From the NCBI GenBank assembly GCA_951406725.2, contig OX597817.1, positions 175,336,001 through 175,400,000 of the forward strand: a stretch of DNA of 64,000 nucleotides. Direction: 5' to 3'. Position numbers and translations under genes: made by a program. The notes under the pieces were generated by a model. That model saw only the letters and a list, made by a program, of their open reading frames with translations. It ran no database searches and was not told the origin of the DNA. The DNA comes from Octopus vulgaris (taxonomy: Eukaryota). This document shows, piece by piece, positions 47,771 to 56,300 of the stretch. Numbering within the stretch: position 1 is the first letter of the stretch; every line of letters starts with the position of its first letter.

Positions 47771-48854
47771 TCAGGTCATCCTATAAGTTCTGTCCGAATT
47801 TTGAATAAAGAAAACAAGTGATCAAATGTTATATTTAATTGAAATTTAATCATCATTGCACCTTCTCTGATTATCTATGACTTTCTTCCATCTATTTACA
47901 AGCATTTTAATCCCATAAATGTAAAACTCTTTTGGTTTCAAAGCGAAGAACTCTGAAATGTAAGTTTCGACCTCCTCCTGGCTTACGAAAGTTATGTCCC
48001 CCAAATGATTCTGTAAACTACGAAACAAATGGTAGTATGAAGGAGCAAGGTCGGGAGAATAAGGTGGATGAGGAATTTTTCCCAACCAAGCTCTTCGATC
48101 TTCTGTGATGTGATCATTGCAGTGTGGGGTCGCGCATTGTCCTGGTAAAAAATCACTCCTTTTCGATTCACTAAAGCGGGTCTTTTTTTCTTCAAAGCTT
48201 GGTCCAAACGCTCTAATTGCTGATAGTAGATTTGAGCATTGATTGTTGCATTAGGTGGTAACAATTAAAAGTGAATTACTCCTTTGCGATCCCACCAGAT
48301 AGAGGGAAGAACTTTTTTCCATGAAGTTCCCTTCTTGGTTGCGGTTGAGCTGTTTCCCTTTTACCAAGCCACTGTTTATGACGTTTAACATTTCGATAGA
48401 AGATCCACTTTTCGTCACCAGTCACAAGTCTATCGAAAAAGGGTGAAATGAGTTCGCGAGAATGGAGAGAAGAACAGATGTCAACTCGGGATTTGCGGTT
48501 GCTTTTGGACAATTCATGAGGCACCCATTTTCCAAGTTGTTGAAGATGACGATGAACAGTTGTATGGTTTGAACTAAGCTTTATTGCCAATTCTTCAACT
48601 GATAATGCAGGTTTTTCTTCAAGTAATGCCTCAAGGAGCTTATCATCAAACTCAACTGGACGTCCTGTTCGATCTTCATCTTCAAGGCTGAAATCTCCAC
48701 TAAAGAATTTTGCAAACTATCTTCTGCAAGTTCTTTCATTCAAACATTCTTTCCCATAAACTGAGTGTATGCTTCGAGTGGCTTCGGCTGTAGAGTTTCC
48801 TTTTTTGTACTCATAGAGCATTATGTGCCTCAAATGCTCTTTGGATACTTCCAT
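47771..48854 (-). mobile_element. Degenerate mariner (Mos1/SETMAR-like) transposon, frameshifted transposase; only one TIR recognised
   Basis: MEVSKEHLRHIMLYEY start at 48854; WVPHEL, VTGDEKW, QDNARPH, HPPYSPDLAPS motifs in different frames; TA+TCAGGTCATCCTATAAGTTCTGTCCG at 47769. Confidence 0.9.
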
Positions 48855-49104
48855 GTTAGAAAGGGTTTTAATCAAAGAAATTTTGATTCTATTATTCTGT
48901 AAAATAATATTTAATTAGTTTAAATGTAGACAAATGCATAAAAATAATTTTTAATTCCATTAGACATAATAAAACACTATTTACCTACTATACAATGAAA
49001 TGAAAACGTCTCAACAAAATCCAGAGCATACAAAACATGTAACATCCCACAAAAGAAGAACAGCAACACAACTGAGATGTTCACATCTGCGAACTAAAAC
49101 AAAG

Positions 49105-49381
49105 TGTGGTGTGGTGATGAGGGAGTGTGACAGAGAGGGAGGGAGCGGAAGTGGGTCTTGCAGGTCTCGCAGGGCGCATGCGCCGGCGGAAGCGGAAGTC
49201 AGCGACAGAACGCACGTGCGGCATCGACCAGGGCAGTCAGACTCGAGAACGACGCCAAGACGACAAGACGCTAGCAAGTTGGCTCAAGGCGAATCCGGCT
49301 TCATCTCTACAGGTAAGACCAAATTACACTTCTAATTCTTTTTCTTGTTCTGTTACGCTCCTTTTCACCACACGTATCACA
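49105..49381 (+). repeat. 5' LTR (277 bp)
   Basis: Starts TGTGGTGTGG, ends GTATCACA; matches 53089-53365 except T49343 vs C53327. Confidence 0.97.
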
Positions 49382-49393
49382 AGCTATTTCGGC
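49382..49393 (+). promoter_or_regulatory. Non-canonical primer-binding site AGCTATTTCGGC, complementary to nt 1-12 of tRNA-Phe(GAA)
   Basis: Abuts the LTR's terminal CA; reverse complement GCCGAAATAGCT is the 5' end of vertebrate/Drosophila tRNA-Phe as I recall it; no TGG-type PBS present. Confidence 0.8.
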
Positions 49394-49435
49394 AAAAATA
49401 ATCACTCGGTTTCGTGAAAATAAAAAATAAAAATT

Positions 49436-50191
49436 ATGCAGACTGCTATGATTTCACGCGACCCTATAACACCGTTTTGCGGCGACACCGACGTGGTCGC
49501 TTGGTTGAGGAGGGTGAAGTTGGTGGCGAAGCTACACGGCATAGCTGACCTGGCTAGTTTTATGCCGTTGTATTTGGATGGCCCGGCGTTGGCGTTATAT
49601 CTGGAGATGGAGGAAGCGGACCAACGCAGCGCGGACAAGGTGGAGATCCGACTTATGGAGGCCTTCGCGGAAGGAATGTTCGAAGCGTACACTCGACTGG
49701 GTAGGATGAGGTGGACAGGACAGCAGGTGGACGTGTTCGCCGGCGAGCTTAGAAGGTTGGCAAAACTTGCGGGATATGAGGGAGAGTCGCTAGAACGCAC
49801 GGTCAGGTTAGCGTTCGTGACCGGCTTTCCCGACATCATGTCGGTCGAGCTACAGAAGCTCCCGAACGTGCGTTCGATGCCGATGGCCGAGATTATATCG
49901 CGGGCACGTGTACTGGTGTCGTGCAGCAGGTCGACGTCGGTAGCAGCGACTGCAACGTCGAAAAGTGGCCCAGCTAGGAGCAACGGAGAGGGGCTGGGGA
50001 AAGAACGCGTGCGGTCGTTTAAGGGACAGTGTTTCCGGTGCCAGGGCCCACACATGGTCCGTGACTGCGCGTCGCCCAAGCCCGAGGTGATTTGCTACCG
50101 GTGCCGAGAGCCGGGGCATGTGGCCAGCGAGTGTCTGCGGGGAAACGGACCGCGGGTGACTACTGCGCCGGTAGTTGTCCCTTTGGATTAG
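49436..50191 (+). CDS. gag: Gag (251 aa) with two C-terminal zinc knuckles
   Basis: CFRCQGPHMVRDC and CYRCREPGHVASEC; ATG 54 nt after the 5' LTR. Confidence 0.92.
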   Translation: MQTAMISRDPITPFCGDTDVVAWLRRVKLVAKLHGIADLASFMPLYLDGPALALYLEMEEADQRSADKVEIRLMEAFAEGMFEAYTRLGRMRWTGQQVDVFAGELRRLAKLAGYEGESLERTVRLAFVTGFPDIMSVELQKLPNVRSMPMAEIISRARVLVSCSRSTSVAATATSKSGPARSNGEGLGKERVRSFKGQCFRCQGPHMVRDCASPKPEVICYRCREPGHVASECLRGNGPRVTTAPVVVPLD

Positions 50192-53052
50192 TAGCGGCGC
50201 GTTTCTCATCGTTACCTGTGGTCGACATTCTGGTGAAGGGGAAGATGTCGCGAGCCCTGGTGGACACGGGCTGTACGACGACCCTGATGACCACAGAAGT
50301 GGCAGAGACGTGGAGTGGAGGAAGCAGTGTCAGGGCAGTCGACGGAAGAGAAGTGCACTGCGAAGGGGTTACGGATGCGCAGATCGTGGTGCAGGGACTG
50401 CAGCTGACGTTGCGAGCGATTGTGGTCGGTCACTTGGTGGACGAGATCGACGTGGTGATGGGGATGGATGCGATCACCCGTCTGGGAGGTGTTACCGTCA
50501 ACGAGACTGGCGTAACGTTTGGGCTAGCAGGGAAGCCGTGTAGGGCGACACCACGCACCGACAACGACCGTGAGGAAATGGATGCGGCGCACACCATTGA
50601 AGACCAGGATTTTCGGGCTGTCTTTGATGGCGAGAGGTGGACAGTGGAGTGGCACTGGAAGGGAGAGCCCCCGATGTTAAAGAACAAAGTGGGCTGCTAT
50701 CAGCATACTCTAAAAGGAGATGCCAGAAGTGAGTTCGAGGGGGAGGTGGAGCGGTGGATTAAGGAGGGCATACTGATCCCCTGGGAAAAAGAAGAGAGCG
50801 GAGTCCTGCCACTGATGGCGGTGATACAGCCCACAAAGCGTAAGGTCAGGCCAGTGCTCGACTTCCGAGAGCTGAATGACCACGTGTCGTGTCATACAGG
50901 CGGCGAGGCCACGGATGTCTGCGGAGACACCTTGCGAGAGTGGAGGCAGACGGCGGGGGCCTCCACGATTGTCGATTTGAAGTCGGCATACCTTCAGGTT
51001 CATGTGGCTGAGAAACTATGGAGGTACCAGCTCGTCAGGTATAGGGGCCGGACGTACTGTCTGACCAGGTTGGGATTCGGGCTGAATTCAGCTCCGAAGA
51101 TTATGGCAACAATTCTCAAGGCCGTCCTGGGGAAGGTGGACAGAGTAAAAAGGGCCACCAATTCATACATCGACGACATTCTGGTGGATGAAACCGTGAT
51201 ACCAGCAACGGAGGTCATAGGCCACCTGAAGAGTTTTGGACTGATCGCCAAGCCGCCAGAGGCTATGGAGGGAGGTGCTGCACTGGGCCTCAAGCTATGG
51301 AGAGACAAAGCCGGCGCCTTGGTGTTCCGGCGAGGGAATGAGATCCCTGAACTGGGCGCCAGCATGAGTAGACGGGAGCTGTTCTCTGTGTGTGGGAAGC
51401 TGGTGGGACACTACCCGATTGCAGGCTGGCTCCGGACAGCATGCAGCTTCATCAAGAGACGAGCCGAAGGAGTGAAGTGGAATGACAAAGTGGGGGAGAG
51501 GACGATCGACATGATGCAGGAAGTCCTGGTCAGAGTAAGAGCAGAGGACCCGGTGAGGGGCAGCTGGTACGTTCCCAAATCAAAGAGCGGGATCGTATGG
51601 TGTGACGCCAGTAGCATCGCAATAGGGATTGTCTTGGAAGTGGGAGGTGTCACGGTGGAAGATGCAGCCTGGCTCAGGAAGATGGATGACTGCAGTCACA
51701 TCAACGTGGCGGAGTTGGAAGCCGTGCTGGAGGGGGTGAACCTAGCCTTGAAGTGGGGGTTGCACACCATAGAAATCAGGACTGATTCGGCCACTGTACT
51801 TGGTTGGGCGACGGCAGTCATCACCGATGAGCGGAGGGTGCGGACCAAAGGGGCTGCAGAGATGCTGGTAAAGCGTCGATTGGGGATACTGCGTGAACTG
51901 ACCACTGAGTTCAATCTGAAGCTGAGCGTGATCTTTGTGCCTTCCGAGAAGAACAGGGCAGACGTCCTGACCAGGGTTAAGCGAGCCTGGTTGCAAGTGC
52001 CAGAGGACGCGAAGCAGGATGTAGCTGCAGTATGCCATCTGAGCGACTCGGAGTTGCGGAGACTGCACACCATGCATCACATGGGTGTGGACAGGACGTT
52101 GTTCCTGGCCAGAAAAGTCGACTCCGACGTAACAAGACAGAGCGTGCGGAGAGTGGTTAGCAGTTGCGACAGGTGCCAGTCCATCGACCCTGCTCCGGTC
52201 GTGCATGAAGCGGGAAGTATTCCAGTGGACCAGGACTGGAGACGACTGGCGGTGGACATAACACACTACCGGCAGGGGACATACCTCTCAATGGTTGACT
52301 GCGGACCGGGGCGGTTCGCCATATGGAGGGAGATGAGGTCAGGAACCGCAGAAGAAATTGCGAAAGTGCTGAACGAGATATTCCTGGAACGAGGCCCCGT
52401 GGATGAACTGCTTCTGGACAACGGCACTGCATTTCGCTCGGAGGCGCTGAGAGAAATGCTTGATGAGTGGAAGGTCAACCGCTTCTTCAGGGCGGCATAC
52501 CGGCCAAGTGGAAACGGGGTGGTGGAAAGGCATCATCGTACCATCAAGGCCATGGCTGAGAGGGGTCACATTTCACCAGTCGAGGCCGTGTTTTGGTACA
52601 ACATGTCGCCCAGATCAGGACAGGCCGAGGAGTCGGTGCCACACAGGGCAATATTCAGGTACGAGTGGAGGCATCCGTGTACTACATCAATGCGACCCGG
52701 GGCAGAGGAAGAGCACGCCTTCGTGCAGGTCGGGGAGGAAGTCTGGGTGAAACCCCCGAACGCACGGTGTACATCGCAATGGGGAAAGGGGACAATAACC
52801 TCCGTAAATTCAAAGAACAACATCTCGGTAGATGGTATGCCACGCCACGTTTTGGACATACGGAGGATTGTCCATGCCCCGGAGGATGGGACAAGCAACA
52901 GTGGGCAAGACGATAACAACAGACAGGATGACGAGGTCGGCAGCAACACGCCAGAAACAAGTCCTAGGGTCGCACTGCGACCACAGAGGGAGCGGCACCC
53001 TCCTCCCTGGTTGGCTGACTACGAAACCAGTTTCAGGTGCGGGAGCGAGTGA
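50092..53052 (+). CDS. pol: Pol polyprotein (protease, RT, RNase H, integrase), likely made as Gag-Pol by -1 frameshift near 50140-50146
   Basis: ALVDTGC (PR); DLKSAYLQV, RLGFGLNSAP, YIDD (RT); WCDAS/AELEA/RTDS/NRADVLTR (RNase H); H..H..CDRC, AVDITH, LLDNG, GVVERHHRTIK (IN); open frame has no ATG at its start and is -1 relative to gag. Confidence 0.95.
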   Translation: MLPVPRAGACGQRVSAGKRTAGDYCAGSCPFGLVAARFSSLPVVDILVKGKMSRALVDTGCTTTLMTTEVAETWSGGSSVRAVDGREVHCEGVTDAQIVVQGLQLTLRAIVVGHLVDEIDVVMGMDAITRLGGVTVNETGVTFGLAGKPCRATPRTDNDREEMDAAHTIEDQDFRAVFDGERWTVEWHWKGEPPMLKNKVGCYQHTLKGDARSEFEGEVERWIKEGILIPWEKEESGVLPLMAVIQPTKRKVRPVLDFRELNDHVSCHTGGEATDVCGDTLREWRQTAGASTIVDLKSAYLQVHVAEKLWRYQLVRYRGRTYCLTRLGFGLNSAPKIMATILKAVLGKVDRVKRATNSYIDDILVDETVIPATEVIGHLKSFGLIAKPPEAMEGGAALGLKLWRDKAGALVFRRGNEIPELGASMSRRELFSVCGKLVGHYPIAGWLRTACSFIKRRAEGVKWNDKVGERTIDMMQEVLVRVRAEDPVRGSWYVPKSKSGIVWCDASSIAIGIVLEVGGVTVEDAAWLRKMDDCSHINVAELEAVLEGVNLALKWGLHTIEIRTDSATVLGWATAVITDERRVRTKGAAEMLVKRRLGILRELTTEFNLKLSVIFVPSEKNRADVLTRVKRAWLQVPEDAKQDVAAVCHLSDSELRRLHTMHHMGVDRTLFLARKVDSDVTRQSVRRVVSSCDRCQSIDPAPVVHEAGSIPVDQDWRRLAVDITHYRQGTYLSMVDCGPGRFAIWREMRSGTAEEIAKVLNEIFLERGPVDELLLDNGTAFRSEALREMLDEWKVNRFFRAAYRPSGNGVVERHHRTIKAMAERGHISPVEAVFWYNMSPRSGQAEESVPHRAIFRYEWRHPCTTSMRPGAEEEHAFVQVGEEVWVKPPNARCTSQWGKGTITSVNSKNNISVDGMPRHVLDIRRIVHAPEDGTSNSGQDDNNRQDDEVGSNTPETSPRVALRPQRERHPPPWLADYETSFRCGSE
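50140..50200 (+). promoter_or_regulatory. -1 programmed ribosomal frameshift signal: G GGA AAC heptamer plus H-type pseudoknot
   Basis: Heptamer 50140-50146 in gag frame; 7-nt spacer; stem 1 GGGTGACTAC (50154-63)/GTAGTTGTCCC (50171-81); stem 2 GCGCCG (50165-70)/CGGCGC (50195-200). Confidence 0.82.
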
Positions 53053-53079
53053 GGAAGCCGGTTCAGTGATCTATAGATC

Positions 53080-53088
53080 AGGGGGGCG
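53080..53088 (+). promoter_or_regulatory. Short polypurine tract AGGGGGGCG
   Basis: G-run directly 5' of the 3' LTR's TG. Confidence 0.75.
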
Positions 53089-53365
53089 TGTGGTGTGGTG
53101 ATGAGGGAGTGTGACAGAGAGGGAGGGAGCGGAAGTGGGTCTTGCAGGTCTCGCAGGGCGCATGCGCCGGCGGAAGCGGAAGTCAGCGACAGAACGCACG
53201 TGCGGCATCGACCAGGGCAGTCAGACTCGAGAACGACGCCAAGACGACAAGACGCTAGCAAGTTGGCTCAAGGCGAATCCGGCTTCATCTCTACAGGTAA
53301 GACCAAATTACACTTCTAATTCTTTTCCTTGTTCTGTTACGCTCCTTTTCACCACACGTATCACA
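53089..53365 (+). repeat. 3' LTR (277 bp)
   Basis: Direct repeat of 49105-49381 followed by TSD CAAAG. Confidence 0.97.
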
Positions 53366-56300
53366 CAAAGCAAAAATGATGTAAAGCCGCTCACGCAATA
53401 AACAAATTAAGTATTACAGCAAATCAAAAGCACAAAATGATGGATGAAGACTTTAGGGAGCCTCATGGAAACACTGAGCAAAATACACAACAAATGTACA
53501 TCGTCGATCCCATATAATAACACACAGACTAAAAGCCCACCACGTAAAAGACCAATCAGAGTTAACATTAAGAAGTATCTAAGTGAAAAAATAACGAAAA
53601 CAAAAATGAACACTAGAAAATCAATGAAAAGGGTTCAGTGTAAACACCTTCCAAAACTACATTAAATAAATGCATAACATTACAAAGAAATAAATCTGCG
53701 AAGAATAAACAAACATAGTGGACCCTATGGAGATCGAAACGTTTCTTGAAATGTTCAAATCGTTCATGAAAAGCAGCAAACGCTTGGATATGTTTCACAG
53801 TTTCTTCTTTCTTATCCTTAAATAAACTTAACTTTTGCTGACTGGTGCGGTGACATATCATCCACCCAGAAACTTAAACGTTTTCTCAATATTTTCTACG
53901 TTTTTTTACAGTGTCTAGTTAAAGGCTTTAATTTTTCAGGATAATTTTATTTTGCCAGATTGTTTCATTGTAATTTTCCCGTGATTTCTCAAAATTTTTC
54001 TTTACTCCTTTTCTTCTCCTGCACATTTTATAGTTAATAGTTTGTTAAGCTCTCGTCACGTAAACTTTAGATTAACATTGCACTATGGAATCAAAAGGGT
54101 TTTAAAATTACTTTTTTTTAAAAATTGCATGTGGTAAAATGTTGTTCGAGGAAATTAGGTGTGACTGAACGCTTTCTTTTGTACATGCTGAGAAAGCAAC
54201 GAGGTAGATCCTTATAAGGGTTTTGTATATAAGCAGGAAATTCCAAGGGTGGCTATGCAACGACAATGGCGTTTCGTTTTGAGATTTTATCTGTTAAAAC
54301 GCTGCTAATTTAAGCGTCACGGTAACGAAGTTTTGTTCACAGATGTAGCATAAAATGAGAAATTAGTGTATAAAGAAAAAATAAATTACAAATAGGAAAC
54401 TAAATTTATTCTTATTAAAGATTTAGAAAAAATTATAAAAATAATGACAAACAAAAAAGTGAAAATATATTGATAACAAAAAGGAAGAGAAACTTCACTC
54501 TTTGGCTGATTTTCTACAAGACTCGACAGAGAAGTCAGAGTGGAAGTCAACAATGGTTAATAATGGTTCAAAAGCACTTGGCAAAAAGGAGAAGGTTTGA
54601 TTTTAGCTGCACTGGACTAACCCTCTGCTACAATTATCTACAGAATATAATAAAGTTATTAGAGTCATGGCATTTCGTCCGTCTGTACGCTCTGAGATCG
54701 ACTTTAAGTTTCATCCTTTTGGGGCTGATAAAATAAGTACCAGAAGAGCATTGGGGTCGATATGATTGACATACCTCCTCCTCGAAATTGCTGGCCTCGT
54801 GTGGAGACAATACAACTAATGAGACGGTTAGTCACATTATCTTCGATTGCCCAATCCTTGTTTAATCCAAATGTAGACACAGGCATGAATGAAATAGCAA
54901 CTGCCTTCTGAGAAATATGAAAGTACTTCGACATGTAAATGGGCGTGGTATAGACATGCACCAAACAAGGTATATGACAACAATTACTTGCGTATTCAAA
55001 TTGATAAGGTGGTCGTCGAGACAAAGTCCAGCTATAATAATCAAAGACTGGAAGGAAATTACAAGAATGTTGATGTGTATTACGTTCCCTTGAGATGGAA
55101 AGAAAGGTGAGAAATTGTCAAACTACAAAAATCTCATAACTGAAATAAATAGGATGTGGAATATAAAGGTAATTAGTACCAGTAATAATTGGAGTATTAG
55201 GTTTGATAAATATGAGCGAACACATAATCCATACCAAGAGATAACATCTCAGATAATCCCCACCAATGCGCAAATATAGAGCTAATGAGTACAACTTACA
55301 TCTTTCTTTAAGTTCAGTAACACAACTTCTACACAAGACACAATAACCACCCAATAAAATTACACTACAAACACTCCTTCAAAGACGATACTCGACACTA
55401 CTATCTACCGATAGATGTTATCAACAACTCACAACTTGCATTCTACACACCTGCAACAAACCACACACTACATAGTTGGCAAAATCACTGCCTGTCACTG
55501 AAACACATAACCCCAATTACACGCGATATACAAAACATTCACCATCCAACAAAATATCGCAACTCACACTGTGTATATTTTACAGAACAAACGAAATATC
55601 GATTTCAAATTTTGGCAAAAAGCCAGCAAATTTGGTGGGAGGGGCTAAGTCGATTACGTCAACCCCAGTGTTCAACTGGTACTTATTTCATCGCCTCCAA
55701 AGGATGAAAGGCAAAGTTAATTTCGGCAGAATTTTAACCCAGAACGTAAAAACAGACGAAATGTCGGTAAAAATTTTGCCCGGCGTGCTAACGATTCTAC
55801 CAGCTCACTGCTTTCGAACAAACGAAATATTCTTTTCTACTCAAGGCACAAGGCCCAAAATTTTGGAGATGGGGGGGCAGTCGATTAGATCGACCTCAGT
55901 ACGCAACTGGTACTTAATTTATCGACCCCGAAAGGATGAAAGGTAAAGTCGACCTCGGCAGAGTTTGAACTCAGACGAAATACCACTAAGCATTTCGCCC
56001 GGCGTGCTAACGTTTCTGCCAGATCACTGCCTTGAACAAACGAAATATTGTACAAGGAACAAAGCCAAGAATTTATGAAAAAGGAACAGTCAATTACACC
56101 AACCCCGCTACTTGACGAGTACTCGTCAGTCTCGGAATACTCACCCACCTTTCGATAAACAAACTGGAAAGCAGCATATCCCTCTCTGCTGTCAATCTCC
56201 TATTCAAATAGTCTTTAAAGAAATCCATACAAATTTGGCCGGAGAGCAAAATACCTGTCTTCAAATCTTTTAACCTTGTTCCCACACGTCCCCACGCCGT

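Follow-up and report, generated by a model that had tools for sequence, protein, structure and literature searches.

The two ends of the long terminal repeat (LTR) of a retrotransposon from Octopus vulgaris pair with each other in a predicted RNA duplex of 55 base pairs. We regard this duplex as a real, selected and lineage-specific predicted structure with a putative role. Its 3' arm begins at the first intron base of a splice donor, and on folding predictions we tentatively propose, at somewhat less than even chances, that the U3-dependent duplex masks the 3'-LTR copy of this donor from U1 in read-through transcripts.

The element

The window, that is the whole stretch of 64,000 nucleotides that was analysed, carries on its plus strand an element of 4,261 bp (49105-53365) with 277-nt LTRs and a 5-bp target-site duplication (TSD; left copy 49100..49104, right copy 53366-53370). 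The 5' LTR (49105..49381) has TG...CA ends and differs from the 3' LTR (53089..53365) at one base (T49343/C53327). A gag open reading frame (49436..50191) with two zinc-knuckle-like motifs (PF00098) overlaps an open pol frame (50065..53052), which encodes protease, reverse transcriptase (RT, with YIDD), DUF7047, RNase H and integrase, and the polypurine tract (PPT) region (53078..53088) abuts the 3' LTR, in the same position as in relatives. Two TG...CA LTRs, a TSD within 4-6 bp, a primer binding site (PBS), a PPT and the pol order PR-RT-RH-IN indicate an LTR retrotransposon of Ty3/Gypsy-type order. Its RT is divergent, scoring under the cut-off of Pfam RVT_1, and no Ty3 chain appears in the best 60 PDB matches of pol, which comprise retroviral integrases, HIV-2 RT and Ddi1. 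Homologues numbered 530 among 8000 candidates, the few with names coming from a cephalopod and crustaceans; a metagenome scan with a single protein query and a search of viral contigs returned no relatives. The element resembles Troyka and the Kuafuorterviruses in being a divergent animal LTR element with the order PR-RT-RH-IN, but these are described, in the parts of the sources available to us, with CG...CG ends, a 3-bp TSD and xADD in RT (PMC12440569, PMC11673190). Membership was rejected on the TG...CA ends, 5-bp TSD and YIDD found here.

A slippery-type heptamer (G GGA AAC, 50140-50146), with a predicted stem (-19.5 kcal/mol) behind it, lies in the gag/pol overlap and is a likely -1 frameshift site. 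The element adjoins broken transposase frames on the minus strand (47846-48914, judged by eye), which we take to be mariner/Tc1-like.

Pairing between the ends of the LTR

The minimum free energy (MFE) fold of the plus strand of 49105-49381 contains 55 long-range pairs that join 49105-49161 to 49313-49381 in helices of 4, 9, 16, 11, 7 and 8 bp. The 5' arm (49105..49161) is purine-rich, forms the start of the predicted U3 and ends in 8 nt complementary to the splice donor; the pyrimidine-rich 3' arm (49313..49381) reaches from the first intron base of that donor to the LTR end. Twelve of the 55 pairs are G-U, the 5' arm supplying the G in 11 of them, and pair probabilities range from 0.43 to 1.0, the minima lying in the terminal and the purine/pyrimidine helices. 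The coordinates and counts of the end-to-end pairing in the initial annotation, which had been paired by hand, thus hold in the MFE fold, and its helix list (9, 17, 10, 7 and 8 bp) deviates only through a single choice of register near 49135. Rfam covariance models gave no match to 49000-53500 at E up to 1.

The comparison with shuffled sequences that the initial annotation had proposed was run on both strands. Folding of the whole LTR gave z = -4.22 on the plus strand, with none of 200 shuffles as strong, and z = -1.37 on the minus strand, with 21 of 200 as strong. It had also been cautioned that one helix is of low complexity. When the two arms were shuffled separately, so that the purine/pyrimidine skew was kept, the real arms paired with -71.5 kcal/mol as against -38.6 +/- 4.3 kcal/mol, and since none of 1000 such shuffles reached this energy, low complexity does not explain the duplex. 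The statement that the structure works on the plus strand only is right as a preference, plus-strand pairing being the stronger in 27/27 LTRs, and wrong as an exclusive rule, since the minus-strand arms pair too (-42.2 kcal/mol, z = -5.1 against arm-wise shuffles). The difference T49343/C53327, noted earlier as keeping the pairing, is no evidence of selection: among 29 young LTRs, 28 of them classifiable, the T is private to the 5' LTR of the window (1/28), and any C-to-T change opposite G keeps a pair.

Evidence for selection on the pairing

Copies of the element were gathered from genome G000, and 27 homologous LTRs, one per element, were aligned. Eleven of 40 fetched elements were not delimited automatically; nine of these were added by hand, L139 was left out, and the 5'-truncated L021 was omitted from the LTR sets. 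All 27 LTRs paired better than their arm-wise shuffles (z from -3.4 to -9.3), with no shuffle as strong in 25 of them and 1/150 in the other two. Compensatory changes, which the initial annotation had suggested looking for, were found: RNAalifold predicted 37 long-range consensus pairs with a covariation term of -4.59, and eight of these pairs show two-sided changes, including U-G/U-A to G-C. One pair is G-C in old copies, passes through a G-A mismatch in L145 and becomes U-A and U-G, in an order that follows the ladder-like RT tree. Moreover, own arms outpaired swapped arms among 12 LTRs by a residual of -5.8 kcal/mol, a value reached in none of 20000 permutations.

On the window's structure, 89.0% of the alignment cells are paired; shuffles reach 86.3 +/- 0.3%, and slid controls 49-61%. 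Eleven pairs are two-sided, a number reached by 15 of 500 shuffles; further pair types showed no excess over shuffles (439/500 as high). The two LTRs of each element were compared in 30 elements over 25 core pairs, which were picked with the alignment already in view. Pairing holds in 728/730 cells in which an element's two LTRs agree. Core pairs are broken by 2 of 14 types of variants common to both LTRs as against 5 of 11 inter-LTR differences, and random transitions would break them in 21/50; shared against discordant variants give p = 0.10 in Fisher's test, and a binomial test gives p = 0.029. Variant sites are fewer in the arms (13/126) than in the loop (36/151; p = 0.004, CpG density uncorrected). 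The five pairs over GTAAG are kept in 26-27 of the 27 LTRs while their 5' neighbours vary; likewise, CTTRC opposite the donor is kept in 26/27 and the four bases preceding it are variable. The strongest covariation is found in the outer helices, not in the donor-covering pairs.

The covariation controls ignore kinship, and relatedness among the copies inflates all of them; taken together, they make selection on the pairing very likely. The selected molecule, judged from the sequences, is most likely single-stranded, plus-sense RNA, and the earlier proposal of selection on a single-stranded plus-sense nucleic acid is thus backed by covariation across the 27 LTRs.

Distribution of the duplex

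A second kind of LTR in G000, type C, has no duplex: its whole-LTR z ranges from +1.4 to -0.4 in 8/8 LTRs, and the arm test was negative in 4/4. Type C shares one RT clade, with end branches below 0.03, with type B, which has the duplex, and leader and PBS are common to both. Some elements (L163, L165, L166, L168-L171), compared with L158-L162, L167 and L172-L177, carry a type A LTR and PPT on a type C internal region. Type B looks like a recombinant that took a type A LTR, a swap for which a single template switch upstream of the PPT would be enough. Among the metagenome loci, 24 of 34 that bear the PBS gave an LTR, with inferred borders, and end-to-end pairing was absent in 23 of these 24 and borderline in L068 (1/100).

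The initial annotation had suggested that the duplex may be part of the unusual replication system. As a necessary part of the priming it is not supported, since the same PBS occurs clade-wide, yet the duplex is absent from type C and from 23/24 metagenome LTRs. In type C, a near-identical RT and the shared PBS occur with no duplex, so that priming seems not to need it; because the same RT and PBS occur without it, a requirement for the duplex at the start of reverse transcription is doubtful. The idea that the pairing brings the PBS next to the PPT is weakened: the helix lies flush against the PBS side in every subfamily, but in 3/27 copies, the deepest-branching, it starts 37-40 nt behind the PPT. 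These three copies (L154, L156 and L157) have 37-40 extra nt, self-folding, at the LTR 5' end, and later copies begin at the inner repeat of the LTR start. The genome offers a natural comparison, in which the same RT and PBS occur with two LTR types, with and without the duplex.

Promoter, splice donor and polyadenylation signals

A predicted upstream promoter (49146..49216) holds CGGAAG boxes, GCGCATGCGC and CACGTG, which are kept across subfamilies in the alignment; we take them to be ETS-like, NRF1-like and an E-box, respectively, with a putative promoter function. The predicted core promoter (49237..49270) has an Inr-like CA(+1)G at 49239 and a DPE-like AGACG at +28 to +32. An A stands 27 nt before the AGACG-like motif in 26/27 LTRs, which amounts to one inherited spacing, and CAGT is present in most old copies. 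The Inr consensus used for the call was that of PMC3601003, as far as this source gives it. From the Inr/DPE spacing, transcription is predicted to start near 49239; the U3/R border would lie there, which would place the whole 5' arm in U3, in agreement with the earlier view of this arm as the start of U3. Type C (L158-L176) has a pyrimidine run, CCTTTCC, 27 nt before AGACGT, where type A has CAG(T). We take this run to be TCT-initiator-like, and a change of core promoter class between the two types is possible.

The 5' splice donor CAG/GTAAGA (49310..49318, plus strand) ends its exon at 49312, and its 3'-LTR copy lies at 53296/53297. AGGTAAG is invariant in 27/27 LTRs, and G49313 is both the first intron base and the first base of the 3' arm. 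Four contig runs, which we guess to be RNA although none is recorded as such, were inspected; such contigs show the presence of a sequence rather than transcript starts, ends or levels. In contigs of two studies, with loose ends in runs X1 and X2, the sequence parts from the element precisely after 49312; two contigs stop at exactly 53296, the 3'-LTR equivalent. The donor, present in both LTRs, is thus used in probable RNA contigs, in one or other of its two copies. The loose end of X2 has a 30-nt match behind a polypyrimidine-CAG acceptor on the same strand as an element copy on G000:C18. This acceptor lies downstream of that copy, at 12,011 nt from its 3'-LTR donor and 15,995 nt from its 5' donor, and a splice to it skips at least 22 poly(A) hexamers. 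The acceptor site is repetitive, with 57 exact 24-nt matches, and of six examined one alone matches all 30 nt; by our own arithmetic, the odds of a chance neighbour are about 2% for 150 copies. The loose end of X1 was sought in G000 and was not found there. The site at G000:C18:66676869 (L183) is a very common host repeat with a ready-made splice acceptor probably taken by LTR-derived RNA, and AG stands at the junction in 4/6 copies of this repeat examined.

None of 12 poly(A) hexamer variants occurs downstream of the predicted +1 in 27 type A/B LTRs and 11 type C LTRs, and a flank hexamer lies 31-956 nt behind 34 of 39 3' LTRs. AATAAA or ATTAAA was found 20-80 nt before the LTR end in 9/24 metagenome LTRs, and such a hexamer is described as usual in the LTRs of animal Metaviridae (PMC3601003, in the part available). 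The closest metagenome relative has a canonical donor near the LTR end (L063:341-349) and no AATAAA. A pair of AATAAA motifs in the leader (49419/49426) is not conserved and was dropped as an argument.

U5 together with the first two PBS bases forms a GT...AG segment, which measures 61-72 nt in 27/27 duplex LTRs and 39-41 nt in type C, and which the 3' arm spans save for its last AG. Both the exon end (49310-49312) and the PBS start (49382-49393) read AG, and therefore a splice of this segment would leave the whole 12-nt PBS and a shortened LTR without the CA end. Among the contig joints listed, which are presence-only data, none links 49312 with the AG at 49383 or with an internal acceptor; a search for genomic copies with the 49312-to-49383 junction gave one unrelated match, and the leader has no conserved splice acceptor.

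Primer binding site

The PBS (49382..49393, plus strand) is the exact complement, over 12/12 positions, of nt 1-12 of the host tRNA-Phe(GAA), that is of its 5' end. Six of 30 loci examined are tRNA genes that start with this 12-mer, five called Phe and one a Phe-like Ile. The 12-mer is also held by a 200-bp tandem array (G000:C18:30147734-30149746), perhaps a tRNA gene array. The same type of PBS is present in 34 of 75 metagenome loci (L063-L137), where it varies at tRNA positions 4-6 plus one further change. Of the 34 metagenome loci with a gag start, 29 have the PBS directly upstream, two have it elsewhere on a permuted contig and three in a looser form. By their sequences, the variants presumably track the tRNA-Phe of other hosts. 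The match to tRNA-Phe nt 1-12 argues against a PBS for a tRNA 3' end, for an anticodon-arm fragment or for the element's own 5' end.

The primer types described in the sources available to us are whole tRNA, half-tRNA and self-priming (PMC6317226, PMC10886601). Half-tRNA primers are, in these accounts, cut in the anticodon stem, and Tf1-type elements use a self-primer (PMC6317226, PMC10886601, PMC4600332). The element shares with the described types a short PBS right behind the 5' LTR and, as in Tf1 self-priming, would need a cut that frees the primer 3' end; priming from the 5' end of tRNA-Phe would need this cut behind nt 12. It differs from all three described types in that its PBS matches nt 1-12 of tRNA-Phe. 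A PBS for the 5' end of tRNA-Phe was not described in the literature covered, which leaves out Repbase and subscription journals, where a prior note is possible. This type of PBS is probably the most novel feature here; shared by distant relatives and independent of the duplex, it may be the larger discovery.

Possible role of the duplex

An RNA starting near 49239 would carry the donor at its 5' end without the 5' arm, so that U1 could bind there. Lacking a poly(A) signal of its own, it would run through the entire 3' LTR, in which a read-through transcript holds both arms (53089-53145 and 53297-53365), and would end at a signal in the host flank. In the 3' LTR, the U3 arm would zip onto the donor and U5 and exclude U1. 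This would permit 3'-end formation nearby and prevent splicing at a site 244 nt past the stop codon of pol, an expected trigger of nonsense-mediated decay. R would stay in the loop, available to minus-strand transfer, and the long outer helices would act as a clamp closing the 150-nt loop. Read-through and a local 3'-LTR hairpin, the second option of the initial annotation, are favoured because the LTR has no poly(A) hexamer, and the splice of X2 past at least 22 hexamers shows what an open donor can do. In the folding predictions, opening the U1 site in the window costs 5.8 kcal/mol with U3 and 3.9 kcal/mol without it. U3 raises this predicted cost in 18/27 LTRs, with a median of +0.5 kcal/mol: in 10/10 of the youngest, 5/12 older and 3/5 type B LTRs, the older copies carrying post-insertion decay. 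Type C shows no consistent effect of U3 on donor opening, though the donor is present and the hexamer absent; local pairing of its donor is predicted but lacks support from covariation (term +0.64). As type C has a donor, no hexamer and no duplex, not every relative needs the mask.

A somewhat less likely reading, the circular geometry of the initial annotation, places the two arms at opposite ends of one RNA. Here the U3 arm at the RNA 3' end would pair with U5 at the 5' end, either regulating reverse transcription like CYC5/CYC3 of Ty1, or locking the GT...AG segment so that the full-length RNA keeps its integrase end. The two ends do co-fold as separate strands, with -171.7 kcal/mol as against -117.9 kcal/mol apart; the GT...AG segment under the 3' arm is intron-sized in duplex LTRs only, and no gap separates the helix from the PBS side. 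End-to-end pairing is, moreover, required in Ty1 and Ty3 according to the available part of PMC4974528. However, as the LTR lacks a hexamer, the local partner, only 150 nt off, should prevail, and the pairing would sit on the first-copied template and be undone before strand transfer, whereas CYC5 of Ty1 lies downstream of the PBS. The gap between PPT and duplex in three copies and the occurrence of the same RT and PBS without the duplex also stand against it, as does the missing splice of the GT...AG segment in the contigs listed and in genomic copies.

A wider scheme, which we consider unlikely, would join three elements. Nucleotides 1-12 of tRNA-Phe, released through cleavage in the D-arm, would represent a fourth priming mode in a wide animal LTR clade; U5 would be a mini-intron of 61-72 nt, whose removal keeps the PBS and drops the integrase end; and U3 would carry a co-evolving 55-nt antisense lock over it once the polymerase reaches the 3' LTR. 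Together, these would form a full-length checkpoint tying splicing, 3'-end formation and priming.

It is improbable that the hairpin serves as a double-stranded RNA signal, that is as a Dicer or ADAR substrate or as an export or stability element, with its G-U pairs derived in part from reverse-transcribed A-to-I edits. A stem of 55 bp with wobbles, in which the G stands on the A-rich arm in 11 of 12, would suit such a signal, but the arms of 29 young LTRs have no excess of A-to-G changes (one per arm), an A-to-G change at 49335 in contigs is a genomic variant (5/29), and cleavage of the stem would sever U3 from the PPT. Slightly less probable still is an action of the duplex in plus-strand strong-stop DNA, a molecule that covers the LTR from end to end. 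Folding with DNA parameters still yields 52 long-range pairs on the plus strand, and DNA, too, accommodates G-T more readily than A-C; against this, z values on the plus strand of four LTRs are non-significant (-1.6, -0.5, -1.7 and +0.2), and a wobble share of 20% suits RNA. That the pairing is a by-product of a purine-rich promoter opposite a pyrimidine-rich U5, or a decaying old inverted duplication, is largely refuted and very improbable: shuffled arms already pair well, since three out of four combinations of purine with pyrimidine can pair, and the minus strand pairs too, but the arm-wise shuffles, the two-sided transversion through the mismatch in L145 and the lower variability of the arms all argue against it.

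Relation to known systems

The proposed masking has its closest likeness in foamy viruses, where the 3'-LTR donor is reported to be masked by a U3-dependent structure that blocks U1 (PMC3694450, in the part available). In both cases the donor is present in both LTRs, and U3, found in the 3' copy only of the RNA, would refold the donor region here. In foamy viruses, according to the same source, 13 nt of U3 are enough and a poly(A) signal lies within the LTR itself (PMC3694450), whereas the present element has a 55-bp end-to-end duplex and no hexamer, and is known here from sequence and folding. With no poly(A) signal in the LTR downstream of the donor, we rejected the element as an instance of foamy-type masking; it may work like the foamy system without being an instance of it. 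Similarly, the complementary sequences near both RNA ends recall CYC5/CYC3 of Ty1 and the tRNA-bridged cyclisation of Ty3, as described in the accessible part of PMC4974528. CYC5, however, lies downstream of the PBS there (PMC4974528), while in the present element U5, upstream of the PBS, is the 5' partner and both arms occur in one LTR; a cyclisation element of the Ty1 type was rejected on this position of the 5' partner. The complementary TG...CA ends are shared with the att inverted repeats of LTRs, but these are given as about 7 bp and symmetric in DNA (PMC3601003, in part), in contrast to 55 bp, 12 wobbles and a strand preference here. In the literature covered, outside which subscription journals and Repbase Reports largely lie, no U3-U5 end-to-end duplex in an LTR retrotransposon was described.

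LTR elements face the common problem that the same sequence has to serve both as 5' promoter and as 3' terminator. Donor masking as an answer has so far been shown in such form only for foamy viruses, as far as the sources available extend, and with a far smaller structure. If the proposed role is true, the promoter/terminator problem would here have a new and readily legible answer, in which an LTR that lacks a poly(A) signal covers a donor in use with a co-evolving U3-U5 duplex of 55 bp.
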